Under the pieces are notes generated by a model. It saw only the letters and a program-made list of their open reading frames with translations. It did no database searches and was not told the DNA's origin. DNA of 64,000 nt, from positions 416,001-480,000 of the forward strand of contig CBDCSU010000005.1 of the NCBI GenBank assembly GCA_965221775.1. Reading direction: 5' to 3'. Position numbers and translations under genes: made by a program. Below are positions 7,042 to 36,978 of this stretch, in pieces. The DNA comes from Candidatus Latescibacterota bacterium. GTDB lineage: Bacteria; Latescibacterota; UBA2968; UBA8231. Each line of letters opens with the position of its first letter. Position 1 is the first letter of the stretch.

Positions 7042-7116
7042 GGCGCCTGAAGGTATCGCCTCCGGCACCGGGGCTCCAGCGCTGACCCGGTCCCGGCGGC
7101 GGCCTATCTTCCCGCC

Positions 7117-15586: not shown

Positions 15587-16384
15587 TCAGGAGGTGGAGG
15601 GGCTGCGCTCGGGGCTGGGGTTGAGGAAGGCGGGCCTCAGGGTGCGCAGCTTGTCGCGCAGGCGCGCCGCCTCCTCGAAGTTCTCGGCTTCCACGGCCAC
15701 GTGGAGGTCGCGCTCCAACTGCTCCTTCTGAGACAGGGGACGCTCCTTCTCCAGTTCCTCGTACCAGTCGGACAGGAAGGTCAGCTCGGGGCAGTCCTCG
15801 TCCATCAGGTCCTCCTCCCCCTCCCACTCGCCGAGGAACTGCTCGATGCGGTCGATGCCGCGCTGCACGTGGCGCAGGGCGGCGTCGTAGTCCTTGGCCT
15901 CGAGGGCGGCCATGGCCCGGGCCCGGGCCTGCATCATCACCGCGTGGGGCAGGTACTGCTCGAAGTACCACTTGACCTCGTCGCTGTCGGCGTGCTCGTG
16001 GACGAGGTCGAAGATGGCCAGGTTGTGCCCGGTGTCGCGCTCCACCCCCTCGTAGTCCTCCAGGAAGAACAGGGCGAGATAGCGCTGGTAGTACTGCCAG
16101 GCTTCCTGGAAGAGGTCCTCGCAGCTCTGCTCGTCGAGCTCGGGGCCGCTTCTGGGCAGCGATCCGGGGCGGCTGCGCAGGGACTGGCGGAAGTGATGGA
16201 GGAAGGACTCGGCGCCGTGGGGCCGGTGTCCGTCGGGGCGGCCGGAGACGTCGAGCTGGAGGATCCCCATGTCGATGCGGATCTGGATCTTCTCCGTGCC
16301 GTCCCGGGCGGTGATCCGGCGGGCGATGAACTCGTCCGGGTCGAAGGGCCACGAATTGAGCAGGTCACCGATGTCGTATTTCAT
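15587..16384 (-). CDS. UvrB/UvrC (UVR) motif-containing protein
   Basis: C-terminal LERDLHVAVEAENFEEAARLRDKLR UVR coiled coil. N-terminal IQIRIDMGILQL..GRPDG.RP block. Confidence 0.82.
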   Translation of the reverse strand: MKYDIGDLLNSWPFDPDEFIARRITARDGTEKIQIRIDMGILQLDVSGRPDGHRPHGAESFLHHFRQSLRSRPGSLPRSGPELDEQSCEDLFQEAWQYYQRYLALFFLEDYEGVERDTGHNLAIFDLVHEHADSDEVKWYFEQYLPHAVMMQARARAMAALEAKDYDAALRHVQRGIDRIEQFLGEWEGEEDLMDEDCPELTFLSDWYEELEKERPLSQKEQLERDLHVAVEAENFEEAARLRDKLRTLRPAFLNPSPERSPSTS

Positions 16385-16459: not shown

Positions 16460-17992
16460 CTAGCGCCGGGAGACCTTGATGCTGCCCACCGCGACGCCGA
16501 CGACGAGGGCGATGACGGCGGCGATGATCAGGGCGTTGCGGATCACCCGGGCGCGCTGCTCGACGCGGATGGTGATGTCCTTCTCCTGGGCCTCGATGCG
16601 CTCCGGGCCCTCGTACCCGGCGGCCTCGACGCGCACGTCGTACTCGCTGACGCCGATGCCGGCGGGCTGCACGAGGGTGATGTTCACCGGCTCCTTCTCC
16701 CCCGGCAGGATGCGGTCGATCGTGTCGGGCTCGGAGGACCAGGTCCAGTCGAGGGGCGGGGTCAGCACCAGGTGCACCCTCTCCACCTCCAGGGTCCCGG
16801 TGTTGAGCAGGTCGACGCGCACCTTCACCTCCTCGCCCGTGCGCACCTCCTGGTAGCGGTTGGCGATGAGGGTCTCGAGGGCGCCCCGGCCCCGGGGGAT
16901 GAGCTCGAAGCGCTCCTTGTTCCCGGGGATCGTGTTGATCTCCTCCAGGGGGATGGGGCCGCGGTGCTTGCGGTTCAGCTCGGCGATGCGCTCGAAGCCG
17001 GCGGCCTCGGTGACGAAGACGTAGAACTCGATCGTCTGGTCGACGTAACCGCGGCTGAGCTTCTCGGGGATCTGCAGCTCCAGCTCCAGCTGCTGGCGCG
17101 TCACCTCCTCGCTGAACTTCACCTGCGTGAGGTTGGCGTTGGTCCCCGGGTCGACGAAGGCGGGGGTGATCTCCCGCGGCAGGTTGACCAGGGCCAGGCG
17201 GAAGGTCTTCTCGTCCTCGGCGAGGCGCTCGAGGATGAGGTCGAAGTTGACCCGCGTGTTGAGGTCGCCCTCCTGGGAGAACTGGACCGAGTTGATCGTC
17301 GGCAGGTCCTGGCTCGACTCCCGGCGCATGACGATCTGCAGCAGCTCCTTGCTGCCGTCGAGGTAGGTGAGGTCGACGACCACGTCCTCGTAGTCCTGGA
17401 GCAGCCGGAAGGTGAGCCGCGTACGCTCGCCCAGGGGCAGGGAGGGCACGAGGATCTCGTAGGGCTCGGCGACGATCGTTCCGAGGCGCTCGGTGAGGGA
17501 GACCTTGAGGTTCTGGATCTCCAGCAGCGGCCGGATCTGGCTCTCGTCGCGGTCGGGGTTGAGAGACAGGGCCTGGCCGAGCTGGGAGGCGTTCTCCAGG
17601 ACGATATCGACCTGGCGGCGGCCGTCGAGGGTGCGGTACTTCCGCGCCTCGCGGATGGTGACGCGGGTGGCGTCCTTGAGGAACTCCAGGCGCGTGCGGT
17701 CGAGCTGGAAGACCGCCTCGCTGTACTTCAACTCCGACTGCAGGAAGGCGCGCCGGGCTTTGTTCAGGCTCTCGAGGGTTTCGATCTTCTCGTCGTAGAG
17801 CTCCTGGATGATGTCGTACTCGCTCTTGTTGTTGTCCATCTCCAGCTTGCGGCTCTCCACCTCCCACTGCGCCTTGCGCAGCTTGATGTCGTAGAGGCGC
17901 TGCTCCTTGGTGCGCAGGTCCTTGGTCGCCCCCAGGGGCGAGGCCAGGAGGCCGAGGAGGAAGACGCCCAGGCAGGCGCGGGCGGCGGTCAT
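16460..17992 (-). CDS. Secreted, C-terminally anchored protein with N-terminal coiled-coil hairpin and NEW3/COG1470-like Ig domains (paralogue 2)
   Basis: Signal peptide; helical segment; beta-rich domains ending VDLLNTGT...PPLDW...ILPGEKEPV; C-terminal TM helix followed by SRR. Confidence 0.8.
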   Translation of the reverse strand: MTAARACLGVFLLGLLASPLGATKDLRTKEQRLYDIKLRKAQWEVESRKLEMDNNKSEYDIIQELYDEKIETLESLNKARRAFLQSELKYSEAVFQLDRTRLEFLKDATRVTIREARKYRTLDGRRQVDIVLENASQLGQALSLNPDRDESQIRPLLEIQNLKVSLTERLGTIVAEPYEILVPSLPLGERTRLTFRLLQDYEDVVVDLTYLDGSKELLQIVMRRESSQDLPTINSVQFSQEGDLNTRVNFDLILERLAEDEKTFRLALVNLPREITPAFVDPGTNANLTQVKFSEEVTRQQLELELQIPEKLSRGYVDQTIEFYVFVTEAAGFERIAELNRKHRGPIPLEEINTIPGNKERFELIPRGRGALETLIANRYQEVRTGEEVKVRVDLLNTGTLEVERVHLVLTPPLDWTWSSEPDTIDRILPGEKEPVNITLVQPAGIGVSEYDVRVEAAGYEGPERIEAQEKDITIRVEQRARVIRNALIIAAVIALVVGVAVGSIKVSRR

Positions 17993-19512
17993 CGCCGGCT
18001 GATCCGGACGCTGGCCACGCCGATGCCGACGACGAGGAGGACGAGGATGCCGATGAGGATGACGTTGCCGGCGATGTTCGATCGCGCCCCCACGTGGATG
18101 GTCAGGTTCTTCTCCAGGGACTCCACGTTCTCGTTGCCCACCTGGCCCTGGGCCTCGACGCCGAGCTCGTAGTTGCCCACGGCGATGTCCGGCGGCGGCC
18201 GGGCGACGATGTCGAGGGGCGCGCGCTCGTCGGGCTCGAGGCGCTTGATGAGCAGGGGCGTCACCTCCTCCTGCCACTGGTAGGGCAGGTCGAGGGCGGC
18301 CTTGATGTTCTGCACCGCCACGCTGCCGCGGTTGAGGAACTCCACGCGGATGCGCAGGTCCTCGCCGGTCTGGATCTCGCGGTAGGTGTTGGAGACCAGG
18401 ACCTCGAGCTTGCCGATGCCCTTGGGGATGAGCTCGAGCTTGACGTAGTTGGCCCGCAGCCCCTGGAGTTCTTCCTCCGGCACCGGGTCGTCGCCGAAGC
18501 GCGCCCGGATGGCGTTGATGCGGGCGTACTCGCGCGGCTCGGTGACCAGGGCGAAGAACGGGCGCGCCAGGCCCACCAGGTTGCGGTCGAGCTTCTCGGG
18601 GATCTCGAGGACGAGGCCGAGGGTGTCCTTGGACTTGTTCTCGTCGAACTTCACCTGCGTGACCTTGGCGCCGGCGTTGCGGAAGGAGAAGTCGATCTTG
18701 CGCGGCAGGCCGAGGACGGCGAGGGCGAAGCTGCGCTCCTCGTCGGAGAGGCGCTCGAGGATGAGGTCGAAGCGCACGTCCTGCTGCAGCTCGCCCGACT
18801 GCGAGAACTGGGCGGAGTTGATGCTCGGCAGGTTCTCGCGCCCGCCCTTGCGCAGGGTGACGGGGATGCTCTCCAGGGTGTCGAGGTAGCCGAGGACCAC
18901 GGCCACCGCCTCCTCGTCGCGCAGGAGGCGGAAGGTCAGGGTGTGCCGCTGGCCCACGTCGAGGGCGGGGACGCGGGTCTCGTAGGGCTCGCCCACGAGG
19001 GGCCCGTTCTTGAGGGAGACGAAGATGTTCTCCACGCGCAGCAGGATCCGCAGGTCCTCCTCGGTGAGGGAGGGATCGACGACGAGGGCATCGCGCGTGT
19101 CGGAGGCGTTCTCCACGACGATGTCGACCATGCTCTTGCCGTCGGGGCTCTTGTACTTGCGGGCGTCGCGCACGACGATGTGGGTGGCGTTGCGCAGCAG
19201 CTCGAGCTTGGTCTCCTCCAGCAGGATCTCGGCCTCCTCCTTCTGCAGCCGCGCCTCGGCGTAGCTGTTCTGCGCCTGCTTGTAGGTGAGGAGGGGCACG
19301 AATCCCGAGTCGTGGAGGGCCCTTGTGAGGCGCAGCTCCTCCAGGGCCTGGTCGAGGCTGGTGCGGCGCTGCTCGAGCTGCAGCTGGCGCTCGTCGAGCT
19401 GCAGCTTGTCGAGCTGCTGCTGGCGCGTGAGGCCGGCCCCCGCGGGGGCCGCGGCGGCGTCCGCGGCGGCGGCGAGCAGAAAGCCGGCCAGAAGCGCGAA
19501 CCTCGCCCTCAT
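17989..19512 (-). CDS. Secreted, C-terminally anchored protein with N-terminal coiled-coil hairpin and NEW3/COG1470-like Ig domains (paralogue 1)
   Basis: Colinear with the downstream gene (ARKY, IVVENAS, EPYE, LPSINSAQFSQ.G, FDLILERL, TQVKF, ELIPKG); C-terminal TM helix followed by SRR. Confidence 0.8.
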   Translation of the reverse strand: MRARFALLAGFLLAAAADAAAAPAGAGLTRQQQLDKLQLDERQLQLEQRRTSLDQALEELRLTRALHDSGFVPLLTYKQAQNSYAEARLQKEEAEILLEETKLELLRNATHIVVRDARKYKSPDGKSMVDIVVENASDTRDALVVDPSLTEEDLRILLRVENIFVSLKNGPLVGEPYETRVPALDVGQRHTLTFRLLRDEEAVAVVLGYLDTLESIPVTLRKGGRENLPSINSAQFSQSGELQQDVRFDLILERLSDEERSFALAVLGLPRKIDFSFRNAGAKVTQVKFDENKSKDTLGLVLEIPEKLDRNLVGLARPFFALVTEPREYARINAIRARFGDDPVPEEELQGLRANYVKLELIPKGIGKLEVLVSNTYREIQTGEDLRIRVEFLNRGSVAVQNIKAALDLPYQWQEEVTPLLIKRLEPDERAPLDIVARPPPDIAVGNYELGVEAQGQVGNENVESLEKNLTIHVGARSNIAGNVILIGILVLLVVGIGVASVRISRR

Positions 19513-20906
19513 TCGACGTACCCCATCAGCCGCCGCAGCTCGGCCTGGCGCGAGATGTAGGTCTCCTGGTTCTGGAACAGGACCTCCTGGGCGGTGAAGA
19601 ACTGCTGGCGGAAGTTCTCCAGCACCGCCTCGTCCACCTGGCCCCCCTTCTCCTGCACCTGCTGCTTGATCTCCAGGCGGCGGCGGGCGATGACCACGCT
19701 CTTCTCCTGCAGGCGCTGGGTCTCCTCGGCCTCGAGCATCGACTGGTAGGCCTGGCGCACGCCCAGCTCCACCGAGGCCCTCAGGTCGCGCAGCTGCACC
19801 TGCAGGCCCTGCAGCCGGGCGCGCTCGAGGCCCTCGCGGCCCAGGCGGGCGCCGCCCTCGAAGATGGGGATGCGCGCCTGCACGCGGGCCGACCAGGTCG
19901 CCTCGCCCTCGTCCTCGGGCGGGTCCGCCTCGTCGAGGCTGAGGCCGGTCTCCACGCCGACGCCCCAGGTGCCGCCCTCGCGGCCGACGCTGAGGCCCGC
20001 CCGGCGGCGGCCGTCGCCGACGCCGGCGTCGGCGCTCAGGTCGGGGGCGTACTCCCAGCCGATCTCGCGCAGGACGCGCCGCTGCTCGTCGAGGAGCTGC
20101 TCGGTGACGCCGATCTCCACGTCGTGAACGAGGGCCCGGCCCACGGCCTCGTCCTGGTCGACGGCGAACGGTTCCAGCTCGCCGCCGAGGCGCAGGTCGA
20201 GGCCGATGGGGCGGCCGATGAGGCGCAGGAGCTCCATCTTGTCGCGCAGCTGCTCGCGCCGGATGCGGTTGATGCTCAGCTCCTCCTCCAGGACGTTGAG
20301 CTCGGCCTGCAGCTTCTGCTCCTCGGAGGCGAGGCGCTTCTCGAAGCGGGCCTGCTGGCGCGCGAAGGTGGCCTCGAAGTTCTGCCGCGAGGCGACGCGC
20401 AGGGCGATCTGCTGGTCCTTGAGCAGGATCAGGTGGTAGAGCTCCCAGACGCGGGAGCTGACCTCGTAGACCTTGTCCTGGTAGTCGAAGACGGCCTTGC
20501 GCAGATCGGCGCGCAGCTGGATCTCGGAAGCGGCGTCGGGGCCGAACTCGAAGAGGCGCTGCTGGAGCAGCAGCTCGCTGGCCAGCTGGTCGCGGGTGGT
20601 GGCGTCGCCCTCGGCGCGCAGGGCGTCGTAGCCGGCGGTGAGGCTCACCCGCGGCATCAGGCGGGAGCGGACGACGACGGCGTCGCTCTCGACCTCCTCG
20701 ATGCGCTTGCGGGCGCCGATCAGCTCGCGGTTGTGGGAGAAGGCCGCGGCGAGGCAGTCGGCCAGGCCGAGGGGCGCCGCCCGGGCGGCGGAGTCGGGCA
20801 CCGCCGGAGGCCCCTCCGCGACGGCGGGACCGAGGGCCGCGGCCACTCCCGCGATGACAACCGCCGTCCGCAGGTGGAGGGCCCGGGACGGCGAAAAGGT
20901 GAGCAA
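19509..20906 (-). CDS. TolC family outer membrane efflux protein
   Basis: LGLADCLAAAFSHN, two OEP-like helical repeats, ARIPIFEGG, VRQAYQSML, ELRRLMG. Start uncertain (TTG at 20906 or 20912). Confidence 0.85.
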   Translation of the reverse strand: MLTFSPSRALHLRTAVVIAGVAAALGPAVAEGPPAVPDSAARAAPLGLADCLAAAFSHNRELIGARKRIEEVESDAVVVRSRLMPRVSLTAGYDALRAEGDATTRDQLASELLLQQRLFEFGPDAASEIQLRADLRKAVFDYQDKVYEVSSRVWELYHLILLKDQQIALRVASRQNFEATFARQQARFEKRLASEEQKLQAELNVLEEELSINRIRREQLRDKMELLRLIGRPIGLDLRLGGELEPFAVDQDEAVGRALVHDVEIGVTEQLLDEQRRVLREIGWEYAPDLSADAGVGDGRRRAGLSVGREGGTWGVGVETGLSLDEADPPEDEGEATWSARVQARIPIFEGGARLGREGLERARLQGLQVQLRDLRASVELGVRQAYQSMLEAEETQRLQEKSVVIARRRLEIKQQVQEKGGQVDEAVLENFRQQFFTAQEVLFQNQETYISRQAELRRLMGYVE

Positions 20907-20943
20907 AATCAATAGGTTCCGTAGGGTCTGGCAGATCGCGCTT

Positions 20944-21027
20944 ATCCTACTGGTGAAGGTGGACCATGTCAAGATGGGGTTGCGCGCAAGCCATTGCTTG
21001 ACATGGGTCACGTACCCCCCGCACGTT
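20944..21027. promoter_or_regulatory. Divergent promoter pair embedded in a 43-bp imperfect palindrome
   Basis: Minus strand: TTGACA (20972-20967), 17 nt, TAGGAT (20949-20944). Plus strand: TTGACA (20998-21003) with a weak -10 (CACGTT). Arms CCATGTCAAG/CTTGACATGG flank a central TTGCGCGCAA. Confidence 0.72.
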
Positions 21028-21080
21028 ACCTCTGTGGACCGCGGGTGTGGACCGCGGGCGACTTTCCCGGAGAGAGGCGA

Positions 21081-21803
21081 ATGCTCGAGATCATCGACAT
21101 GACCAAGCACTACGGCGACGTGCACGCCGTGAACGACCTCACCCTGACCATCGAGCCGGGCGAGATCTTCACCATGCTCGGCGCCAACGGCGCCGGCAAG
21201 ACGACCACCCTCATGGTGGCCCTCGGGTTCACCGAGCCGACGGCCGGGACGGTGAAGATCTGCGGCGTCGACGTCACGCGCGACCCGCTCGAGGCCAAGC
21301 GCCACGTGGCCTACGTGTCGGAGAACGTCATGCTCTACGGCAACTTCACGGCCCGCCAGAACCTCGAGTTCTTCACCAAGCTCGGGGGCCGCAAGCAGGT
21401 GGAGGCCTCGGAGTACGACCAGGTCATGGACCGCGTCGGCCTGCAGCGCGACGCCTTCGACCGGCGGGTGAAGGGGTTCTCCAAGGGCATGCGCCAGAAG
21501 CTCGGCATCGCCATCGCCATCATGAAGAACGCCGAGGTGATCCTCCTCGACGAGCCCACCTCGGGACTGGACCCCAAGTCGGGCGCCGAGTTCCTGCAGC
21601 TGCTGGCCGAGCTGCGCGAGGAGAACAAGGCGATCTGGATGACGACCCACGACATCTTCCGGGCCAAGCAGATCGCCGACCGCGTGGGCATCATGGTCGA
21701 GGGCAACCTGGTGAAGATCTTCACCCGCGACGAGCTCGGGCAGGAGGACCTGGAGTCGATCTACGTCGAGTTCGTGAGCCAACCCGCCGAGCAGGCGGCC
21801 TGA
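21081..21803 (+). CDS. ABC transporter ATP-binding protein (ABC-2/CcmA-like)
   Basis: Walker A GANGAGKTT, signature FSKGMRQK, Walker B ILLDEPTSGLDP, H-loop TTH. Confidence 0.96.
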   Translation: MLEIIDMTKHYGDVHAVNDLTLTIEPGEIFTMLGANGAGKTTTLMVALGFTEPTAGTVKICGVDVTRDPLEAKRHVAYVSENVMLYGNFTARQNLEFFTKLGGRKQVEASEYDQVMDRVGLQRDAFDRRVKGFSKGMRQKLGIAIAIMKNAEVILLDEPTSGLDPKSGAEFLQLLAELREENKAIWMTTHDIFRAKQIADRVGIMVEGNLVKIFTRDELGQEDLESIYVEFVSQPAEQAA

Positions 21804-21909
21804 CGGCCGTCGACGCCACCGGCCGCCGGCCCCGACCCGCCTTGCGCCCCCGCCCCCGCATGTCCCCGGTCCGCGGCGCCCCCGGGGCCGCGCTTCCATC
21901 GAGGCTTCC

Positions 21910-23295
21910 ATGCTCCTGCGACTGATCCGCAAGGAAGTCCTGCACAACATCCTGAGCTTCCGCTTCGCCGTCACCTACGGCCTGCTCTTCGTCCTCGTCC
22001 TGCTCGCCGTCTTCCTCATGGGCAACGAGCACCGTCAGCGCATGGAGACCTATACCCGGCAGGAGTCCCAGGCCCGCGACCGCCTGGAGGAGCTGGCCGG
22101 GATGCAGGACGCCACCGAGCAGTTCCGGCAGATCCAGCGCGAGGACTTCGCGGGGGTACGTCAGCCGGGGGCGCTGGCCGTCCTCGCCCGCGGTCTCGAG
22201 GGCAGCCTGCCGGCGCAGATCTCCTCCGGCGGCTGGTTCACCACGCACAGCTCCGAGGACCGCCTGGGGCGCAACATCCTCCTCGAGATCTTCCAGGCGC
22301 CCGACTTCGCCTACGTGGTCAACATGGTCCTGAGCCTGCTGGCCCTGCTCTTCGTCTTCGACTCCGTCTGCGGCGAGAAGGAGCGGGGCACCCTCAAGCT
22401 CCTGCTGTCGGGCTCGGTCCCCCGGGACACGGTGCTGCTGGGCAAGTGGGTGGGCGGCTACCTCTCCATCGCCGGGCCCTTCGCCGCCGCCGCCGCCGCC
22501 GGCTTCCTCTACCTCTCCCTCTCCGGCTCCCTGCCGCTCGAGACGGAGGTCGTCTCCCGTTTCGCCGCGATCCTCGCCGTCTCCTTCCTCTATATATCCG
22601 CCTGCTTCAGTCTCGGTCTGCTGATCTCCACCCTCGCCCACCGCGGCGCCACGGCCCTGCTCATGGCGCTGCTGGTGTGGATCGGCTGGATCCTGGTGGT
22701 GCCCAACCTGGCGCCTGTCGTGGCCCGCCTGGCGGCGCCGGTGCCGTCGCGCCAGGTGATCGACGCCGAACAGCAGGCCATCGACCGCGAGGCGGAACTG
22801 CTGATGGGGGCCATCCGCAAGAGCAAGGTCTACGGCGACCGGCAGCAGATGGAGCGCATCCAGGAGGAGACGGAGCAGCGCAAGCGCAAGCTCGACGGCT
22901 TCTACAAGGACCGCATGTCGCGCCAGACCTCCCTGAGCCAGAACCTGGCGCGCCTGTCGCCCTCGGCCAGCTATCTCCTCGCCGCCACCCGCCTCGCCGG
23001 CACCGGCCCCGACCTCTTCGCCCACTTCTCCGACGCTGTCGAGCGCTTCCACGGCGCCCACGACGACTTCCGCAGCCAGATGTACGGCAACGTCTCCTGG
23101 ACGCGGGGGCCCGATCCGGACATCCAGGACGAGGACTGGTTCGACCCCGACGACGTGCCCCGGCTGTCCATGTTCTCCGAGAGTCTCTCCGAGGCCTTCG
23201 ACGGGGCCCTCTTCGACATCCTGCTGCTGGTCGTCTTCAACGTGCTGTTCTTCCTGCTGTCGTACGTCTTCTTCCTCCGATACGACGTCACCTGA
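21910..23295 (+). CDS. ABC-2 type (NosY/COG1277-like) permease with large periplasmic loops
   Basis: LIRKE start, FDSVCGEKERGTLKLLLS.SVPR..LLGKW.GG, C-terminal FLRYDV. Confidence 0.9.
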   Translation: MLLRLIRKEVLHNILSFRFAVTYGLLFVLVLLAVFLMGNEHRQRMETYTRQESQARDRLEELAGMQDATEQFRQIQREDFAGVRQPGALAVLARGLEGSLPAQISSGGWFTTHSSEDRLGRNILLEIFQAPDFAYVVNMVLSLLALLFVFDSVCGEKERGTLKLLLSGSVPRDTVLLGKWVGGYLSIAGPFAAAAAAGFLYLSLSGSLPLETEVVSRFAAILAVSFLYISACFSLGLLISTLAHRGATALLMALLVWIGWILVVPNLAPVVARLAAPVPSRQVIDAEQQAIDREAELLMGAIRKSKVYGDRQQMERIQEETEQRKRKLDGFYKDRMSRQTSLSQNLARLSPSASYLLAATRLAGTGPDLFAHFSDAVERFHGAHDDFRSQMYGNVSWTRGPDPDIQDEDWFDPDDVPRLSMFSESLSEAFDGALFDILLLVVFNVLFFLLSYVFFLRYDVT

Positions 23296-23315
23296 GCCGT
23301 TCCGGGAGAACGCCC

Positions 23316-24749
23316 GTGCTGCTGCACATCGTCCGCAAGGAACTCCTCGACCAGCTGCTGTCCCTGCGCTTCGCCATCGCCTGCGGCGTCTGCCTCATCG
23401 TCTTCGTCCTCAGCGCCGTGGTGCTCACGCGGGACTACCGCGAGGGCCTGTCGACGTACAACATGAACCGCGTCATGCACCGCAACGAGCTGCAGCAGCG
23501 CGACCAGATCTGGAGCCTGAACGAGGGAGTCACCGTCGACCGGCCCCTGAACCTCATGAACACGCTGGTGCGCGGCCTGTCGAAAGAGCTGACCGAGAGC
23601 GTCCGCGTGCAGCCCGGGAACCGCCTCGACTTCCCCGAGGGCTGGGAGCAGAACCCGGTGCTTCCCCTGTTCCCGCCGGTGGACTTCGTCTTCATCGTCG
23701 GCATCATCATGAGCCTCCTGGCCCTGGCCTTCGCCTACGACGGGGTCTCGGGCGAGGCCGAGACCGGCGTCCTCAAGCTGCTCATGTCGTACAGCGCGCC
23801 CCGCGACCTGGTGCTCCTCGGCAAGTGGCTCGGCGGCTACCTGGCCCTCATCGCGCCCTTCACCGTCTCCTTCGTCCTCGCCCTGCTCGTGGTTCTGCTG
23901 TTCCCCGACGTGCAGCCCGATACCGAGAGCTCGCTGGCCCTGCTCGCCCTCTACGGCCTCGCCCTGCTCTACCTGGGCGCCGTGTACAGCCTGGGCCTGC
24001 TCGTCTCCTGCCGCACCCGGCTGGCCTCGACCTCGATCACCGTCCTCCTGCTGTTGTGGGTCTCCCTGATCCTGGCGGTGCCGAACATGGCGCCGTACGT
24101 GGTCAGCCAGGTGGTGCCGATCCCCTCCGCCGAGGAGGTGGACCGCGAGAAGCAGGCCCTGCAGAGGGAGCAGCAGCAGCGGTTCCAGGAGATCATCGCC
24201 GAGGAGCAGGAGCGGCTCGGCCGCGACAACGTGTGGGGCGACGAGTCGGTGCAGGAGCGGTTCCGGGTGGCGGCGGAGGAGTCCCAGGCGGAGATACAGA
24301 AGATCGAGGACAGTTTCCGCACCCAGGTGGCGGGGCAGACGCGGCTCTCCGGCATTCTCGCCCGCATGTCTCCCCTGACCTCCTTCAACCTCGCCGCCTT
24401 CGACCTGGCCGCCGCCGGCATCGCCCAGGAGGAGGAGTGGGTGGCGAGCCTGGAGGCCTTCGGCGACACCTGGTCGGCGTACTCGGAGGAGAAGCAGCGC
24501 GCCTACAGGGAGTGGATCCATGAGCAGATGGCCGCCTCCCCCAGCGGCGGCGTGACCATCACGTCGCAGGACATGGAGCGGTTCAACCAGGACCTGGATC
24601 TGTCCGACGCGCCGCGGTTCAGCTTCTCCCACATGGGCGTTTCCGACCGCCTCGCCGCGGTCTACGTCGACCTGGCCTTGCTGGCCCTGTGGAACGTCGC
24701 CTTCTTCATGCTCGCCTACCTTTCCTTCCTGCGCTACGACATCAACTGA
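23316..24749 (+). CDS. ABC-2 type permease, paralogue
   Basis: GTG start, IVRKE, YDGVSGEAETGVLKLLMS..PRD..LLGKWLGG, C-terminal FLRYDI. Confidence 0.9.
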   Translation: MLLHIVRKELLDQLLSLRFAIACGVCLIVFVLSAVVLTRDYREGLSTYNMNRVMHRNELQQRDQIWSLNEGVTVDRPLNLMNTLVRGLSKELTESVRVQPGNRLDFPEGWEQNPVLPLFPPVDFVFIVGIIMSLLALAFAYDGVSGEAETGVLKLLMSYSAPRDLVLLGKWLGGYLALIAPFTVSFVLALLVVLLFPDVQPDTESSLALLALYGLALLYLGAVYSLGLLVSCRTRLASTSITVLLLLWVSLILAVPNMAPYVVSQVVPIPSAEEVDREKQALQREQQQRFQEIIAEEQERLGRDNVWGDESVQERFRVAAEESQAEIQKIEDSFRTQVAGQTRLSGILARMSPLTSFNLAAFDLAAAGIAQEEEWVASLEAFGDTWSAYSEEKQRAYREWIHEQMAASPSGGVTITSQDMERFNQDLDLSDAPRFSFSHMGVSDRLAAVYVDLALLALWNVAFFMLAYLSFLRYDIN

Positions 24750-24797: not shown

Positions 24798-25727
24798 ATG
24801 GCCCATCACGAGTTCGTCCCCGGCCACTACCACAACACCCTCGGCTGGCACGAGCCGGTCCTGGAGGTCGCCCCGGGGGACTCGGTCTCGACGACCACCG
24901 TCGACGCCCGCGGCCGGGACCGCGACGGCGAGCAGGTGGCGGTCCGGGGCAATCCCCAGACCGGTCCCTTCCACGTCACCGGCGCCGAGCCCGGAGACGC
25001 CCTGGCGGTCACCCTCGACCTGGTGCGGCCGAACCGGCCCTGGGGCTTCACCGCCACCGCCGTGGCGCCCAACGTGCTCGACCCCGGGTTCCGGCCGCGC
25101 TTCGACGACGAGATCGAGGTCACCCGCTGGGCGGTGGACGCCGACGCCGGCACCGTCCGCCTCAGCGAGCCCGAGGGGCCCCTGTCGCGGCTCTCCCTGC
25201 CCCTGGACCCCATGGTCGGGTGCTTCGGCGTGGCCCCCGAGAGGGGCCAGGCGATCTCCACGGCCACCTCCCACCGCCACGGCGGCAACATGGACTACCG
25301 GGGGTTCCGCCAGGGGGTGACCGTCTGGTTCCCCGTCTTCGCGCCGGGGGCCCTGTTCCACATCGGCGACGGCCACGCCGTGCAGGGCGACGGCGAGATC
25401 GTCGGCACCGGGGTGGAGATCTCCTTCGACGTGCGCTTCACGCTGGACCTGGTGAAGGGCTCGTCCATCGGCTGGCCCCGGGCCGAGGACGACACCTGGC
25501 TGATGACGGCGGGCAACGCCCGGCCCCTGGACCAGTGCGTGCAGCACGCCACCACCGAGATGCTGCGCTGGCTGGAGACCGACCACGGCCTCGACGCCCG
25601 CACCGCCCACCTGCTCCTCGGCCAGGCGGTCGCCTACGACGTGGGCAACATCTACGACCCGGCGTACACCATGATCTGCAAGGTGAAGAAGAGCCACCTG
25701 AAGGCGATCCGCGGGGAGGCCGGATGA
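24798..25727 (+). CDS. Acetamidase/formamidase family protein
   Basis: NPQTGPFHVTGAEPGD, HGGNMD, GDGHAVQGDGEIVGTGVE. Confidence 0.93.
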   Translation: MAHHEFVPGHYHNTLGWHEPVLEVAPGDSVSTTTVDARGRDRDGEQVAVRGNPQTGPFHVTGAEPGDALAVTLDLVRPNRPWGFTATAVAPNVLDPGFRPRFDDEIEVTRWAVDADAGTVRLSEPEGPLSRLSLPLDPMVGCFGVAPERGQAISTATSHRHGGNMDYRGFRQGVTVWFPVFAPGALFHIGDGHAVQGDGEIVGTGVEISFDVRFTLDLVKGSSIGWPRAEDDTWLMTAGNARPLDQCVQHATTEMLRWLETDHGLDARTAHLLLGQAVAYDVGNIYDPAYTMICKVKKSHLKAIRGEAG

Positions 25728-26638
25728 GCAGCCCTCTCGTCGTCACCTGCATCTCCTACGCCCCCGTGGGCGGTTCCGACGAGGAGGTGGTGGAGCGGAC
25801 CCACGAGGACCTCAAGGGGCTGGTGGGCCGCGCCGCCGGGGCCACCGGGGCCGACCTGATCGTGCTGCCCGAGACGATCTGCCGGACCTTCGACGAGGAG
25901 GTGCCCGAGGGCCCCACGACGCGGCTGCTGGCCGGCCTGGCGCGGGAGCACGGCTGCTACGTCACCGTGCCCGTGCACCAGAAGGAACCCGCCACCGGCG
26001 CCGTGTACAACGTCCTCGGCCTCCTCGACCGCCAGGGGGAGCTGGCCGGCATCTACCGCAAGTACATCCCCGTGTACCCGGAGTTCGACCACGGCACCCG
26101 CCCCGGCCCCGGGGCGCACCTGATCGACACCGAGTTCGGACCCGTGGGCGGCGTCATCTGCTTCGACCTGAACTTCGGCGAGCTGCGGGCCGAGTACAAG
26201 AAGCTCAAGCCGCGGCTGCTGCTCTTCAGCTCCATGTACCACGGCGGCCTGGTGCAGAACTTCTGGGCCCTCGACGTGCAGGCCTTCTTCGCCGGCTCCG
26301 TGTACCGGGGCACGCAGTGCACGATCATCGACCCCCAGGGGACCACCCTGGCCCGGAGCAACAACTACCAGCCCTGGGCCTCGGCGCCGATCAACCTCGA
26401 CTACGAGTTGGTGCACCTCGACCGCAACCAGGGCCGCTACGACGAGATCCACCGCAAGTACGGCGACGGCGTGCGCATCGTCACCGCCGGCGAGGTGGGC
26501 ACCTCGGTGATCTACAGCGAGTCGGCCGCGCGCACCGCCGCCGACATCGTCGAGGAGTTCGAGCTGATCCGGCTCGACGACTACTTCGACTGGTCGCGCA
26601 AGCTGCGGACGGAGCAGCTGGAGAAGGCCCCGGCCTGA
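25724..26638 (+). CDS. Carbon-nitrogen hydrolase (nitrilase superfamily)
   Basis: Catalytic triad contexts LIVLPE, YRK, ICFDLNF. ATGA overlap with the amidase. Confidence 0.9.
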   Translation: MSSPLVVTCISYAPVGGSDEEVVERTHEDLKGLVGRAAGATGADLIVLPETICRTFDEEVPEGPTTRLLAGLAREHGCYVTVPVHQKEPATGAVYNVLGLLDRQGELAGIYRKYIPVYPEFDHGTRPGPGAHLIDTEFGPVGGVICFDLNFGELRAEYKKLKPRLLLFSSMYHGGLVQNFWALDVQAFFAGSVYRGTQCTIIDPQGTTLARSNNYQPWASAPINLDYELVHLDRNQGRYDEIHRKYGDGVRIVTAGEVGTSVIYSESAARTAADIVEEFELIRLDDYFDWSRKLRTEQLEKAPA

Positions 26639-26711: not shown

Positions 26712-27725
26712 ATGTCCCCTGCCCTTCTTCTCCTCCTCCTGACCCTGGTGCCCGGCGCGCTCCTCGGCCAGGAGCGGCCACCGACGCCGGTCATCGTCGC
26801 CGAGGTCCTCGAACAGCCCCTCGTCGAGGATCTCTCCTTCGTCGGGCGCATCCTGCCCGTGCGTTCCAGCCGGGTCGCCGCCGAGACCGAGGGCAAGGTG
26901 GTGCAGCGGTTCAGGGACGCCGGCCAGACCGTGCGCGCCGGCGACCCCCTCTTCGCCCTGGCCAACGATCCGCTCCAGGCGGCGCTGGAAGAAGCGGAGG
27001 CCGATCTCGCGCTGAGGCGCTTCATCCACGACGGCAGCCGCCGGTTGCGCGCCACCGACTCGGTCTCGGAGCAGGACCTGCGCGTCAACGCCTTCGAGCT
27101 GGCGCGCGCCGAAGCCCGGCTGAGCGGCCTCCAGGCCCAGGTGGAGAACCTCCTCGTCCGCGCCCCCTTCTCCGGGCACATCGTCCGCACCTCCACCGAG
27201 GTGGGAGAGTGGGTCGGCCGCGGCGGCGAGATCGCCCAGGTGATCTCCATCGACACGGTGCGCGTCATCGTCGAGGTGCCCGAGCACCATGTGCCGCAGC
27301 TGGCCTTGGGGGACACCGCCGCCATCCTCGTCGACGCCCTCGGCGGCGATCCGGTCCACGGCCTCGTAACCGTCATCTCCGCCGAAGGCTACGCCGCCTC
27401 GCGCACCTTCCCGGTCGTCGTCGAGGCCGCCAATCCGGCAGGCCGCATGCGCAGCAACATGTCGGCGCGGGTGCGCTTCCGTATCGCCCAGGCGACGGCA
27501 TCGCTCCTGGTGCACAAGGACGCCCTGGTCTCCGGTCCTCGGGGGCAGGTGGTGTACCTCGCCCGCGACGGCAAGGCCCTCGGCCGCCCCGTCGAAGCCG
27601 GGCTGGCGCACCAGGGTTACGTGGCCGTCACGGGCGACCTCGCGCCCGGCGATCTGGCCGTGGTGCGCGGCAACGAGCGCCTCCGCGACGGCCAGGCGGT
27701 GCGCATCATCCGCCGGCAGCCGTAA
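26712..27725 (+). CDS. RND efflux periplasmic adaptor (membrane fusion protein)
   Basis: Signal peptide, VAAETEGKV lipoyl half, VRAPFSG, SRTFPV, GDLAVVRG. Confidence 0.92.
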   Translation: MSPALLLLLLTLVPGALLGQERPPTPVIVAEVLEQPLVEDLSFVGRILPVRSSRVAAETEGKVVQRFRDAGQTVRAGDPLFALANDPLQAALEEAEADLALRRFIHDGSRRLRATDSVSEQDLRVNAFELARAEARLSGLQAQVENLLVRAPFSGHIVRTSTEVGEWVGRGGEIAQVISIDTVRVIVEVPEHHVPQLALGDTAAILVDALGGDPVHGLVTVISAEGYAASRTFPVVVEAANPAGRMRSNMSARVRFRIAQATASLLVHKDALVSGPRGQVVYLARDGKALGRPVEAGLAHQGYVAVTGDLAPGDLAVVRGNERLRDGQAVRIIRRQP

Positions 27726-27731
27726 GCCGCC

Positions 27732-30700
27732 ATGCGCCTGATCGCCACAGCCATCCAGCGGCCCGTCAGTGTCACCGTCGGCGTGCTCCTGGTGGCGCTC
27801 TTCGGCCTGATCTCCCTCTTCCGCATCCCCGTTCAGCTCACCCCCGACATCGACCGGCCGATCATCACCGTCTCCACGGTGTGGCCGGGCGCCAGCCCGG
27901 AAGAGGTCGAGCAGGAGATCGTCCAGCGCCAGGAGGAACAGCTCAGGAGCGTCGAGGGACTGGTGCTGATGACCAGCGAGAGCAACGACAGCCGCGGGGT
28001 CGTCTCCCTCGAGTTCAACGTCGGCGTCGATCCGGACGCGGTGATGCTGCTGGTCTCCAACAAGCTCGACCAGGTCTTCGGCTATCCCCTCGACGCCGAG
28101 CGGCCGGTGATCTCGGCCGGCGGCACCGGGCCGAGCGGGGCGATCACCTGGATCATGCTCCAGCCCCTGCCGGACCGCGGCGATCTGGATATCGAGCGCT
28201 ACCGCGACTTCGCCGAGGAGGTCATCAAGACCGCCCTCGAGCGCGTGCCCGGCGTCTCCCGGAGCGACATCTACGGCGGCTACGACCGCCAGCTCCAGGT
28301 CATCGTCGATCCCCGGGCCATGGCCGCGCGCCAGATCACCGTTCAGGACCTGGCCCGGGCCCTGGCCCGCGAGAACGCCAATACCAGCGCCGGGACCTTC
28401 GACGAGGGCAAGCGCCGCTACATCGTGCGCACCGTCGGTCAGTACCAGCAGCCCGGCGACATCGAGCAGGTGGTCGTCCGCTCGGCCGACGGCACCCGGG
28501 TCACCGTCGGCGAGATCGCCCGCACCCGCCTCGGCTACGTCCGCACCGTGGCCTCCGTGCGCCAGAAGGGCCAACCCGCCATCGCCATCAACGCCCGGCG
28601 CGAGACCGGGGCCAACGTCCTCGAAGTCATGGACGGCATCCGCCGCACCATCGGCCAACTCAACGAGGGGCCCCTGGCCCGCGAGGGCCTCTACCTCACC
28701 CAGGTCTACGACGAGACCGACTACATCGACAGCGCCATCGGCCTGGTGCGCTCCAACATCCTCATCGGCGGCACCCTGGCGGTGATGGTGCTCTTCATCT
28801 TCCTGCGCACCGTCAGCTCGGTGGCGATCATCGCCACCGCCATCCCGATCTCGATCGTCGGCACCTTTCTGGCCATGTGGCTCCTGGGCCGCAACATCAA
28901 CGTCATCAGCCTGGCGGGGATGAGCTTTGCCGTGGGCATGGTCATCGACAACGCCATCGTCGCCCTCGAGAACATCTTCCGCCACCAGCAGATGGGGAAG
29001 AGCCGCGCCCGCGCCGCCCTCGACGGGGCCACGGAGGTCTGGGGGGCGCTCCTGGCCAGCACCCTGACCACGGTGGCCATCTTCCTGCCCATCGTCTTCG
29101 TCGAGGACGAGGCCGGTCAGCTGTTCCGCGACATCGCCATCGCCGTCTCCTGCTCGGTGGTGCTCAGCCTGATCGTGGCCGTCTCCGTCATCCCCAGCCT
29201 GGCCAACAAGATCCTCGGCGGCGACAGACGCGGCGGGGGCCGGCTGGCCGCCTGGGGCGAAGGGGTGCGGACCTTCATCGCCCGGAGCGTCTTCCGCATC
29301 AGCGGCAGCACGGTGCTGCGCCTGGGGGTCATCGCAGGGCTGATCGGCCTCTCGGTGGCCATCGCCTGGAACCTGCTGCCCAAATCGGAGTACCTGCCCA
29401 CGGGCAACCGCAACCTGATCTTCGGCATCGTCCTGCCGCCCCCGGGGTACAACCTCGACGAGCTGATCCAGGTGGGCCAGACCGTCGAGGACGTCCTGCG
29501 CCCCCACTGGGAGGCGGCCTCGGACCCCGACGGCCCCCAGGCCCGAGCCCTGCCGGGACCGCCGATCGCCAACATGTTCTTCGTCGCCTTCGGCCGCTCC
29601 GCCTTCATGGGAGCGCGCTCGACCGAGCCGGAGCGGGTGCGCGAGCTGATCCCGATCATCCAGGGGCCGGTCCTGGGCGGGGTGCCGGGGACCTTCGCCG
29701 TCGTGCAGCAGTCGAGCCTCTTCCAGCGCGCCACCGGCAGCGGGCGCTCCATCGACATCGAGATCACCGGGCCCGATCTGGACCACCTCGTCGGGCTGGG
29801 GGGACGGGTATTCGGCCAGGTCCGGCAGGTCGTGCCCGGCGCCCAGGCCCGCCCCATTCCCAGCCTCGACCTGGGCAATCCGGAAGTCCGCATCCTCCCC
29901 GACCGCGTGCGCGCCGCCGACCTGGGCCTGTCGGCGCGCGACATCGGCTCGGCGGTCAATGCGCTGATGGATGGCGCCATCGTCGACGGCTACCAGTTCC
30001 AGGGCGAGGAGATCGACCTGGTGCTGCGGGGCGAGGAGGACTGGTTCCGCACCCAGGATATCGCCGCCCTGCCGATCTACACCCCGCGGGGCCAGCTGGT
30101 GCCGCTGAGTGCCGTGGCCCGCGTCGAAGTGACCACCGGCCCCGAGCAGATCAACCACATCGAGCGCGACCGGGCGATCACCGTCCGGGTCATCCCGCCG
30201 GAGACCGTTCCCCTGGAGACGGCCCTCGACGCGCTGCGGACCGAGATCGTCCAGCCCCTCGTCGATTCCGGCGATCTGGCCCCGCCCTACCAGATCCAGC
30301 TCTCCGGCTCGGCCGACGACCTGCGGCGCACCCGCCAGGCCTTGCAGTGGAACTTCCTGCTGGCCCTGGTGATCACCTACCTGCTGATGGCCGCCCTCTT
30401 CGAGAGCTTCCTCTACCCCTTCGTCATCATGCTCAGCGTGCCCCCGGCGCTGGCGGGCGGCATCCTCGGGCTGGAGGTCGTCAACCGGACGCTGACCTAT
30501 CAGCCCCTCGACATCCTCACCATGCTCGGCTTCGTCATCCTCATTGGCGTGGTCGTCAACAACGCCATCCTCATCGTCCACCAGACGCTCAACATCCTGC
30601 GGGAGGCGCCCGAGACCCCGCTCGGAGAGGCGATCCACGACGCCGTCTTCAGCCGCGTGCGGCCGATCTTCATGTCCACGATCACCAGCGCCCTGGGGAT

Positions 30701-30875
30701 GCTGCCGCTCGTCGTCTTCCCCGGCGCCGGGTCCGAGCTCTACCGGGGCCTGGGCAGCGTCGTCATCGGCGGCCTGCTGCTGTCCACCTTGTTCACCCTC
30801 TTCCTGGTGCCGACCTTCCTCAGCCTGGCGATGGATCTGAGAGCCTGGGTCGGCCGCGCCGGGAAGGCGATGTAG
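27732..30875 (+). CDS. RND efflux permease (AcrB/MdtB-like)
   Basis: 1047 aa; IQRPV, PGASPEEVE, GMVIDNAIVALENI, FESFLYP, GVVVNNAIL, SRVRPIFMST. Confidence 0.96.
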   Translation: MRLIATAIQRPVSVTVGVLLVALFGLISLFRIPVQLTPDIDRPIITVSTVWPGASPEEVEQEIVQRQEEQLRSVEGLVLMTSESNDSRGVVSLEFNVGVDPDAVMLLVSNKLDQVFGYPLDAERPVISAGGTGPSGAITWIMLQPLPDRGDLDIERYRDFAEEVIKTALERVPGVSRSDIYGGYDRQLQVIVDPRAMAARQITVQDLARALARENANTSAGTFDEGKRRYIVRTVGQYQQPGDIEQVVVRSADGTRVTVGEIARTRLGYVRTVASVRQKGQPAIAINARRETGANVLEVMDGIRRTIGQLNEGPLAREGLYLTQVYDETDYIDSAIGLVRSNILIGGTLAVMVLFIFLRTVSSVAIIATAIPISIVGTFLAMWLLGRNINVISLAGMSFAVGMVIDNAIVALENIFRHQQMGKSRARAALDGATEVWGALLASTLTTVAIFLPIVFVEDEAGQLFRDIAIAVSCSVVLSLIVAVSVIPSLANKILGGDRRGGGRLAAWGEGVRTFIARSVFRISGSTVLRLGVIAGLIGLSVAIAWNLLPKSEYLPTGNRNLIFGIVLPPPGYNLDELIQVGQTVEDVLRPHWEAASDPDGPQARALPGPPIANMFFVAFGRSAFMGARSTEPERVRELIPIIQGPVLGGVPGTFAVVQQSSLFQRATGSGRSIDIEITGPDLDHLVGLGGRVFGQVRQVVPGAQARPIPSLDLGNPEVRILPDRVRAADLGLSARDIGSAVNALMDGAIVDGYQFQGEEIDLVLRGEEDWFRTQDIAALPIYTPRGQLVPLSAVARVEVTTGPEQINHIERDRAITVRVIPPETVPLETALDALRTEIVQPLVDSGDLAPPYQIQLSGSADDLRRTRQALQWNFLLALVITYLLMAALFESFLYPFVIMLSVPPALAGGILGLEVVNRTLTYQPLDILTMLGFVILIGVVVNNAILIVHQTLNILREAPETPLGEAIHDAVFSRVRPIFMSTITSALGMLPLVVFPGAGSELYRGLGSVVIGGLLLSTLFTLFLVPTFLSLAMDLRAWVGRAGKAM

Positions 30876-30936: not shown

Positions 30937-32004
30937 ATGCAATTCGGCCAGTTCTATCTGCTGGAAACCCCGCCCGGCAAGGACCACGCCCAGGTCTATC
31001 ACGAAGCGTTCGAACAGTTCAAGCTCATGGACGAAACGGGCTGGGACGCCATCTGGCTGGCGGAGCACCACTTCGACCACAAGGCGCCGGGAGCCAACTA
31101 CTACTCGATCACCTCGTCCATCCATACCATGGCCGCGTACGCCTCGGCCATTACCGAACGCATCAAGATCGGCACCGCGGTTGTCGTGCTGCCCTTCCAC
31201 AATCCCGTCATCGTTGCGGAGGACTTCGCCACCGTTGACATCATGTCGAAGGGACGACTCCTCTTCGGCGTGGGGCGCGGTTACCAGGCCGAGGAGTTCT
31301 ACAACTGGGGAATCGACCTGGAGGAGAGCCGCGACCGGTTCCAGGAAGAGCTGGATATCATCCTCAAAGCCTGGACGGGGCCGGTCGAATACGACGGCAA
31401 ATTCCACAAGGTCAGGAAGGTCAACGTCATCCCGAAGCCCGTACAACAGCCCCACCCGCCGGTCTACGTTGCGGCGGTGAGTCCCTCCACGTACGAGTGG
31501 GTCATCAAGAACGGCCACAACGTCCTGACCTCCTTCCTGCACCCCTACGACGAGGTCTTCCAGCTCTACGAGTCGTACCACAAGACCGCGGAGGCATGCG
31601 GAATGTCGGGCAAGCTGGAGTTCCCCCTGGCCAGGTTCCTCTACGTGGCCGAATCCACCCAGAAGGCCCGGGAGGAGTGCCACGACCAGCTCATGTGGTA
31701 CTTCCGCACCCTGCTGGCCGAGGTGATCGCGCCGCCGCCGGAAATGGCGCCTCCCGGCCAGATGGAGTTCTACCAGGGACTGAAACAGAGGTTCTCGACC
31801 ATCACCTTCGACGAGATCCTGGCCGATCACGCCATCGTGGGCGATCCGGACTTTGTCGCCGACAAGATCGGCTGGATCCAGAAACACACGGGACTGCAGA
31901 ACTTCATGGGGTGGACCCGCATCGGGGACCTGAGCCCCGACCTGGTCTGCAAGTCCCTTCGCATGTTCTCGGAACACGTCGCGCCCGCCTTCAAGGAGGA
32001 TTGA
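30937..32004 (+). CDS. LLM class (luciferase-like) flavin-dependent oxidoreductase
   Basis: WLAEHHF, TERIKIGTAV, AEDFATVD..SKGRL.FGVGRGY, PKPVQQPHPP. Confidence 0.93.
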   Translation: MQFGQFYLLETPPGKDHAQVYHEAFEQFKLMDETGWDAIWLAEHHFDHKAPGANYYSITSSIHTMAAYASAITERIKIGTAVVVLPFHNPVIVAEDFATVDIMSKGRLLFGVGRGYQAEEFYNWGIDLEESRDRFQEELDIILKAWTGPVEYDGKFHKVRKVNVIPKPVQQPHPPVYVAAVSPSTYEWVIKNGHNVLTSFLHPYDEVFQLYESYHKTAEACGMSGKLEFPLARFLYVAESTQKAREECHDQLMWYFRTLLAEVIAPPPEMAPPGQMEFYQGLKQRFSTITFDEILADHAIVGDPDFVADKIGWIQKHTGLQNFMGWTRIGDLSPDLVCKSLRMFSEHVAPAFKED

Positions 32005-32007
32005 CCC

Positions 32008-32406
32008 ATGTCTGCCAGCGCAAACGCACGTATCGCCCGCGAGTCCCTCGAAGCCGCCTTCGCCTCTGACTGGAAGCGCCTCCGCGAAACCTACGCCGAC
32101 GACGCGACCATGGTCGGCGGCGGACTCGACATCCGCGGCGCGGATGACATGGTGGCCCTCTGGCGGGGCTGCCACGAGGAAGAGCGGGACCTGCGGCTCG
32201 AGATTCTCAACGTCGTCGCCGGCGATGAGATGGTCGCCGTGGAGTTCCGCCACAGGGGCATTGTGAACCAGCTTCTTCCCGGAATGTCCGAAACGTTGCT
32301 TGGAAAACGTCTGGTAGCGACCGAGGTGCACATGTGCCGGGTTCAAGACGGGAAGATCACCGCCGTGACCATCTATGGCGGTGTGAGCGAGACTTTCGAC
32401 GTCTGA
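32008..32406 (+). CDS. SnoaL/NTF2-like protein (ester cyclase family)
   Basis: YADDA, VAGDEMVAVEF, RVQDGKI pattern; 132 aa. Confidence 0.75.
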   Translation: MSASANARIARESLEAAFASDWKRLRETYADDATMVGGGLDIRGADDMVALWRGCHEEERDLRLEILNVVAGDEMVAVEFRHRGIVNQLLPGMSETLLGKRLVATEVHMCRVQDGKITAVTIYGGVSETFDV

Positions 32407-32449
32407 CGGGTCTGGCTGAATGGGGAAGCCGGCCTCCGAGGGGGAAACC

Positions 32450-33271: not shown

Positions 33272-33291
33272 ATGGCGAGGAGAGGTCCAGG

Positions 33292-33762: not shown

Positions 33763-33775
33763 TCCACCCTGCCCC

Positions 33776-36978
<3,203 letters not shown>

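Follow-up and report, generated by a model that had tools for sequence, protein, structure and literature searches.

How is a TolC-family channel linked to the inner membrane where no canonical adaptor gene accompanies it? The question is raised by a locus in a 64,000-nucleotide stretch of DNA, here called the window, from a Candidatus Latescibacterota bacterium (assembly GCA_965221775.1, contig CBDCSU010000005.1, positions 416,001 to 480,000). In this locus, genes for a TolC-family outer membrane factor (OMF) and two paralogous proteins of the NEW3 family, which we call pA and pB, are divergent from genes for an ATP-binding cassette (ABC) ATPase and two permeases. The evidence tips slightly towards the view that the six genes encode one envelope-spanning, TolC-dependent ABC exporter in which pA and pB are a new kind of adaptor.

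The six-gene cluster and its TolC

All six genes reported in a preliminary description of the locus were confirmed, as was their divergent arrangement (Table 1). The window is ~70% G+C. The two permeases are paralogues with 32% identity (E 5e-62), and pA and pB share 40% identity along their entire length (E 4e-121). The translational coupling that had been proposed for TolC, pA and pB was also found on the sequence, with an ATGA overlap at each junction: the TolC gene ends in ...GTCGAATGA, with the ATG of pA at 19512-19510, and the pA gene ends in ...CGATGA, with the ATG of pB at 17992-17990. On the other side of the divergent spacer, GAGAGAGG directly precedes the ATPase ATG (21081). An earlier start for permease 2, overlapping permease 1, was abandoned; the most likely start, judging from the sequence, is the non-overlapping GTG at 23316, because it leaves a 20-nt gap after the permease 1 stop with GGGAGA before the start, and because orthologues begin MLLHIVRKELL. 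The Pfam run for permease 2 used the stretch 23292-24749. The start of TolC is uncertain, a TTG at either 20912 or 20906, and searches with TolC were run with 19509-20909 or 19509-20990. Ahead of the start, the minus strand carries a single sigma-70-like site (20972 to 20944, TTGACA-17-TAGGAT), a consensus match only, with one found versus 0.3 expected in shuffled sequences.

None of the six genes matched the HlyD or membrane fusion protein (MFP) families of Pfam, and NCBIfam had no family for pA, pB or permease 2. The cluster lacks a canonical MFP, as had been described; the closest one is the partner of a resistance-nodulation-division (RND) pump at 26712-27725. A search with HlyD_D23 in five complete genomes placed no canonical adaptor closer to the cluster than 60 kb in any of them.

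The window's TolC is, by sequence, a divergent subfamily of OMFs. It has two OEP matches (58.9 and 55.5 bits), both above the cut-off, and positions 26-441 of its subfamily profile aligned end to end with residues 3-406 of the E. coli TolC chain (E 6e-15). The profile also aligned with CmeC, OprM and CusC. A phmmer search of the Protein Data Bank (PDB) with the window TolC sequence alone returned nothing at E ≤ 0.001, and under the curated NCBIfam cut-offs the protein scored 75.4 bits versus 225 for type_I_sec_TolC and 24.6 versus 210 for NodT.

We considered whether two unrelated operons lie side by side by chance, with TolC serving the RND pump. That pump (26712-30875, plus strand) lies 2 kb downstream of the cluster, has its own HlyD-type adaptor and has no OMF gene beside it, and the same adjacency recurs in three other loci (L072-L074). 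These are, however, the only loci among the 75 scanned with RND and MFP genes near the cluster, and all three have a pA at least 93% identical to that of the window. No RND pair was seen in the ~1.5 kb available past the Fmd gene of L091 (same genus) or in the corresponding ~2 kb of L075 and L076. The preliminary description had allowed that this TolC might track with the RND pair; since the RND neighbour is confined to the three closest relatives, it does not. The genome has 22 OEP matches representing 11 genes, that is, 10 OEP genes besides the cluster TolC. In a tree whose rows were picked by tblastn with the window TolC, leaving out the divergent TolCs of family f10, 30 NEW3-adjacent TolCs including the window's fell on one side of a branch separating them from 10 other OEPs (Shimodaira-Hasegawa-like approximate likelihood ratio test, 99). 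The NEW3 tree has major groups matching those of the TolC tree, and in two genomes with two systems each (G130 and G145) sequences grouped by system, not by genome, in both trees. These trees and the linkage of TolC to NEW3 genes contradict chance adjacency, which we regard as highly improbable.

Hairpin-bearing NEW3 proteins and NosY-like permeases

An AlphaFold2 model of pA (mean predicted local distance difference test score, pLDDT, of 92.4; 69-sequence alignment) has a signal peptide (residues 2-19), two hairpin helices (30-68 and 74-109; 39 and 36 residues), three beta-sandwich domains (112-219, 230-324 and 354-475) and a transmembrane helix (480-506), consistent with the earlier account of the paralogues as hairpin-bearing, immunoglobulin (Ig)-type and membrane-anchored. 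The signal peptide looks cleavable, and the anchor is the C-terminal helix rather than the N-terminal anchor or lipid of adaptors. Pfam PF10633 (NEW3/NPCBM_assoc) was matched by pA and pB (44.4 and 44.3 bits; cut-off 24.4) and by all 69 aligned family members. The tripartite pumps described in the two reviews searched share one adaptor architecture, comprising a hairpin and lipoyl, beta-barrel and membrane-proximal domains (available text of PMC4446572). The last three are not in the pA model, in which the hairpin stands directly behind the signal peptide and is followed by the three beta-sandwiches. Because three defining features of MFPs fail, pA and pB should not be filed as members of the MFP family, though they probably work like one. 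A Foldseek search with the whole pA model retrieved generic Ig arrays only (integrins and ciliary proteins; template-modelling scores 0.2-0.28). In three longer family members (P0109, P0110 and P0111; 718-797 aa), the first Ig-like domain occurs in three or four copies behind the hairpin, which would lengthen the stalk.

Adaptor hairpins led the matches of the family profile to PDB sequences (MexJ, 5.4e-5; a MacA construct, 2.3e-4; MexA, 7e-4), followed by a TriAB fusion, ZneB and AcrA. They made up 8 of the 9 matches at E ≤ 0.001 and 16 of the 33 at E ≤ 10, and all aligned at profile positions ~25-110, i.e., with the hairpin. At the hairpin tip, L66 of pA is invariant (69/69) and corresponds in the alignment to the RLS motif's Leu, and 44 of the 69 members have Ser or Thr at +7. 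In adaptors this motif is R-x3-L-x6-S (MexA R119/L123/S130; available text of PMC4446572). The hairpin is kept in all 69 aligned members, with arms of 39 and 36 residues in 62 rows and of 33 and 29 residues in 7 rows. Such paired deletions are as expected of a coiled-coil hairpin; the arms of adaptor hairpins likewise vary in length together, heptad-wise (same source, in the text available). Short hairpins were considered as a mark of TolC loss, an idea that was rejected on finding that the short-hairpin loci of family f10 do carry a TolC gene.

The ATPase is highly conserved across the phylum (55-100% identity). Permeases 1 and 2 matched ABC2_membrane_2 with 113.2 and 88.4 bits (cut-off 27.2). 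The AlphaFold2 model of permease 1 (pLDDT 92.6; predicted template-modelling score 0.89) has six transmembrane helices and, in the periplasm, a helical bundle made up of the first of them, extended to about residue 63, and four helices between the fifth and sixth (281-393). Its best solved match in a fold comparison (VIA) was NosY (7o0y_D; Z 26.5, root-mean-square deviation 2.6 over 254 residues, 24% identity), followed by ABCG25 (Z 20.0), and NosY also came first in Foldseek (E 8e-5). Scores were lower for FtsX (Z 8.2) and for the MacB-like chain of S. pneumoniae (Z 7.9), and the model does not have the four-helix FtsX fold. Permease 1 is thus modelled as a six-helix, NosY-like type V ABC fold.

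The sole direct hint of contact between NEW3 protein and permease comes from the sequence of P0256, a 924-aa fusion found in two sources that consists of an entire permease followed by an entire NEW3 protein. Its former signal peptide sits where a seventh membrane helix would be needed.

The preliminary description had the two paralogues pairing 2:2 with the two permeases. This was not upheld: one NEW3 gene accompanies one to six permease genes elsewhere, and the window's genome has only the pA/pB pair of NEW3 genes versus 15 permease genes with ABC2_membrane_2 and DUF3526. These 15 genes lie at six loci (Table 1), and there are two ATPases of the cognate subfamily, one in the window's locus and one at C6:2543332. 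A fixed 2:2 pairing is unsupported because a single genome has 15 permeases, two cognate ATPases and one NEW3 pair; a single highly conserved ATPase may serve several permease pairs.

In the exporter that we propose, the two permeases, both NosY-like (type V, ABC-2) and both bearing a helical bundle in the periplasm, would form a heterodimer driven by an ATPase dimer. The adaptor's place would be taken by pA and pB, with the C-terminal helix in the inner membrane, a stalk of three Ig-like domains and the N-terminal alpha-hairpin at the far end. This hairpin would be of the kind by which canonical adaptors meet the periplasmic tip of TolC, and the dedicated TolC would complete the duct. We only infer that the parts touch one another, that transport is outward and that pA and pB form a pA3pB3 ring matching the threefold symmetry of TolC. 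Our guess, made with low confidence, is that the cargo is not a drug but a molecule of the envelope or periplasm.

Linkage across genomes and the exceptions to it

Relatives of pA carry the names Latescibacteria or Latescibacterota and, in some cases, Gemmatimonadota. In a scan of one genome per species (35 loci), 17 labels began with Latescibacter and 11 with Gemmatimonad, 5 read 'bacterium', and Planctomycetota and Omnitrophota occurred once each; the division between the first two groups probably reflects the taxonomy scheme rather than biology. A profile search of 1.84 billion representatives gave 2318 proteins at E ≤ 0.001; at E ≤ 1e-30 there were 280, counted as clusters at 50% identity. 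A homologue was present in 79 of the 168 genomes of the window's phylum in GTDB. The tandem NEW3 pair is typical of family f1, with single genes elsewhere. The pA clade and the pB clade, each of 17 rows, are sister groups with the f9 genome at the base of both, and both genes are kept in all 17 tandem loci.

We analyzed ~19 kb of gene neighbourhood for each of 40 NEW3 genes, which represent about ten GTDB families, using tblastn and then hidden Markov models (HMMs) built from the matches. In 31 of the 40 loci, a TolC gene in the same orientation lay no more than 1 kb from the NEW3 gene (29 by tblastn with the window TolC, which misses the divergent L054 and L055; OEP was confirmed in G011). 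The cognate ATPase was found in 32 loci and at least one permease in 31. All three partners were present together in 24 loci, and only one locus (L043) had none of them, so that the linkage of NEW3, TolC, ATPase and permease genes does recur, as a neighbourhood check suggested by the preliminary description was meant to establish. Across the 168 genomes, an ATPase orthologue (E ≤ 1e-60) was found in 72, of which 68 also have a NEW3 gene; 11 have NEW3 alone, 4 the ATPase alone and 85 neither. Related genomes are not independent, so all of these linkage and co-occurrence counts are descriptive and overstate the support for a joint system. Gene order varies in at least ten ways among the 40 loci, divergent and single-strand arrangements included (Table 1). 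Because the cluster recurs across the phylum, its arrangement is not due to chance.

The locus with none of the partners (L043; G106:C1:535000-554000) has a tandem NEW3 pair with no TolC or ABC genes nearby. Its pA is without the first hairpin helix and both copies are long-branched; it looks like a decaying system.

Several observations weigh against an exporter with pA and pB as adaptors. The Arg of the RLS motif is missing from the hairpin tip, with no Arg among the six commonest residues at -4. No MFP family of Pfam matched individual members (25 listed families, 69 members), and 7 further, unlisted families each matched at most one of the 69. Matches of the hairpin to Pfam OEP, seen in 21 of the 69 members, were all below threshold (best E 0.0017); they fit the known likeness of adaptor hairpins to TolC helices (available text of PMC4446572). 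In the fold comparison (VIA) HlyD, EmrA, AcrA and MacA scored Z 10-11 against the hairpin, but the hairpins of F-BAR, ROP and SMC proteins scored equally well; since unrelated hairpins score alike, the fold by itself is not informative. Two family members, P0168 and the protein of L100, have no hairpin, and the L100 gene is overlapped by the TolC gene. An adjacent TolC was missing from 9 of the 40 loci, one of them at a contig edge. In family f3, no OEP gene was found near NEW3 in four of four genomes checked, and the ABC genes are kept. Conversely, genus g16 (5 genomes, 84-97% complete) keeps TolC, pA and pB with no ATPase orthologue at E ≤ 1e-60 and no family permease at E ≤ 1e-10, a search that gave 17 matches in the window's own genome as a positive control. 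Four loci (L036, L040, L044 and L045) had no permease within ~9 kb. Homologues of the paralogues without TolC or the ABC genes, which the preliminary description had counted against its proposal, do occur in g16 and f3, though most loci are linked.

The g16 genomes and the four loci without a nearby permease are what would be seen if TolC, pA and pB formed a self-standing envelope module, either a tether or duct between outer and inner membrane or a module shared by several transporters, with the ABC genes as frequent but not obligatory neighbours. The junction of TolC and NEW3 genes, often an overlap, is also the tightest link among the 40 loci, and the surplus of family permeases over the single NEW3 pair in the window's genome points the same way. 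A self-standing module nevertheless agrees poorly with the presence of the ATPase in 68 of the 79 NEW3-positive genomes, with single-strand operons that hold all the parts (L038, L049 and L100), with the existence of the permease-NEW3 fusion and with family f3, in which NEW3 stays with the ABC genes rather than with TolC. We consider this reading unlikely.

The f3 loci suit another arrangement, in which a NosY-like ABC machine has the NEW3 proteins as accessory or substrate-handling subunits, in the way that NosY has NosD, with no docking by the hairpin and with TolC recruited otherwise or serving only as an exit. NosY is the closest solved relative of the permease, the fusion joins a NEW3 protein to a permease, and P0168 and the NEW3 protein of L100, encoded in one operon with TolC, ATPase and two permeases, manage without a hairpin. 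Against this, the hairpin with its invariant tip Leu is retained throughout the 69 aligned members, its profile retrieves adaptor hairpins first, and the TolC and NEW3 genes overlap and co-diversify. An accessory role of this kind seems to us quite improbable.

The replacement of an adaptor by pA and pB, as first proposed, is therefore upheld in part: the hairpin, the C-terminal anchor, the dedicated TolC clade and the ABC linkage speak for it, and the hairpin-less members, g16 and f3 limit it. A fuller version of the exporter that we favour is possible but tentative. In that version, pA and pB would be a new adaptor class in which the Ig-like, C-terminally anchored accessory subunit of a NosY-like ABC machine has acquired a TolC/adaptor-like hairpin by grafting; a twelve-helix collar of three pA and three pB would dock a co-evolving TolC, turning a type V transporter into an envelope-spanning exporter of non-drug envelope cargo, with a stalk tuned by Ig-like repeats or heptads.

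Known systems, neighbouring genes and significance

A literature search on NEW3/COG1470/NPCBM, ABC-2, TolC/OEP, adaptors and Latescibacter, with subscription journals outside its coverage, found no described system of this architecture, in line with the earlier statement that none was known. MacAB-TolC likewise combines TolC and an ABC transporter with a ring of adaptors that bear hairpins, and the pA hairpin finds some of its best matches, by profile and by fold, in MacA hairpins (4dk1, 4dk0; 5nik_D, Z 10.1). MacB has the FtsX-type fold, in contrast to the six-helix NosY-like permeases here. MacA is anchored by its N-terminus and includes lipoyl, beta-barrel and membrane-proximal domains (available text of PMC4446572), whereas pA and pB carry Ig-like domains and a C-terminal anchor.

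The adaptor gene of E. coli YbhFSR is ybhG. Two ABC-2 permease genes occur with a TolC-like OEP in this system (available text of PMC8277102) and in H. pylori HP1486-HP1489 (available text of PMC9570263), as they do here, but both have an ordinary MFP where the present cluster has the NEW3 paralogues. The terms 'Ig-like' and 'ABC-2' do not occur in the available part of PMC8277102.

The Nos system (NosDFY(L)) includes the closest solved relative of permease 1, but it has neither TolC nor a hairpin protein, and NosY itself has no helical periplasmic bundle (250-275 aa versus 461 aa). In the Nos system the periplasmic partner, a beta-rich protein on which NosY acts, works with an ABC-2 dimer in the membrane. 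No nos genes were seen in the annotated stretch of the window.

The pA hairpin is similar in length to that of MexA (profile positions 29-100 align to MexA 65-136), and it shares heptad-wise variation in arm length with AcrA, MexA, HlyD and EmrA. Hairpin-less variants exist on both sides, here P0168 and the L100 protein and among canonical adaptors BesA (available text of PMC4446572). The pA/pB hairpin differs in being N-terminal, not inserted in a lipoyl domain, and in its missing RLS Arg. TriABC-OpmH also has two adjoining paralogous adaptor genes; pA and pB are always both kept, and the TriAB fusion (entry 6vej) is among the family-profile matches. TriA and TriB, which alternate in one hexamer, differ from pA and pB in being canonical RND adaptors.

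Table 1. Features of the locus and of related loci; positions are those of the window unless a locus or contig is named.
Feature	Location	Strand	Basis or remark
pB, NEW3-family paralogue, 510 aa	16460-17992	-	Open reading frame and translation; Pfam NEW3 residues 384-458, 2e-11; parts: signal peptide, alpha-hairpin, Ig-like domains, C-terminal transmembrane helix
pA, NEW3-family paralogue, 507 aa	17989-19512	-	AlphaFold2 model, profile matches, Pfam NEW3 2e-11, ATGA overlap at each end
TolC-family outer membrane factor, ~465 aa	19509 to ~20912	-	Pfam OEP, two stretches, 8e-31
Divergent spacer, 168 bp, between TolC and ATPase genes	20913-21080		
ABC ATPase, 240 aa	21081-21803	+	Pfam ABC_tran 8.1e-31
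Permease 1, 461 aa	21910-23295	+	ABC2_membrane_2 1.8e-32 and DUF3526
Permease 2, 477 aa from GTG 23316	23316-24749	+	ABC2_membrane_2 6.5e-25 and DUF3526
Neighbouring genes: formamidase/acetamidase-family, carbon-nitrogen hydrolase, luciferase-like monooxygenase, PhyH dioxygenase, 941-aa peroxidase-domain	24798-26638 and 30937-36978	+	
Other permease-family loci of the window's genome	C4:61602-66495; C6:985881-988653; C6:1836518-1839283; C6:2025849-2028812; C6:2543332-2549912		
HEAT-repeat genes	L033:13705-15144; L038:15145-16524; L046:2124-3527 and 6829-7884; L100:16102-17439		
All genes on one strand	L038		Single-strand operon also in L049
Order ATPase-NEW3-TolC-permease	L049, L052, L053		
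Order permease-permease-NEW3-TolC-ATPase	L059, L069		
Order TolC-NEW3, then five or six permeases	L054, L055		
Compact operon NEW3-TolC-ATPase-permease-permease	L100		

A gene for a 265-aa protein with a C-terminal UvrB/UvrC motif lies on the minus strand 75 nt downstream of pB (15587-16384); a scan of 75 related loci found it in 32, among them L043, which no longer has TolC. A gene for a HEAT-repeat protein of ~450 aa recurs inside the cluster of other lineages (Table 1), in some copies with a CBM9-like domain. In the L100 copy the N-terminus contains a Cys and, by eye, resembles a lipoprotein signal. The window's locus lacks the gene, which has paralogues elsewhere in the window's genome. 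The neighbouring plus-strand genes listed in Table 1 have no evident link to an exporter.

Metatranscriptomic contigs from three libraries in two studies fall on the stretch. Near-identical RNA contigs span the ATPase and both permeases and bridge the pA/pB and permease 1/2 junctions, and RNA contigs from a related strain span pB, pA and part of TolC. They are weak evidence for expression of the cluster, because such libraries can contain DNA; gaps in their cover are likewise not evidence of silence. DNA runs with 81-91% of the stretch's sampled words, from several studies, are labelled sponge metagenome, and the organism is probably sponge-associated.

The cluster probably represents a tripartite exporter with a new adaptor architecture. 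If so, a second, unrelated scaffold carries the same kind of hairpin as canonical adaptors, which would make the hairpin a transferable TolC-docking module and provide a natural test of models of tip-to-tip docking. TolC-dependent export would also be extended to NosY-like ABC machines. With its 280 clusters, as counted above, the family is sizeable, and it characterises an uncultured phylum.

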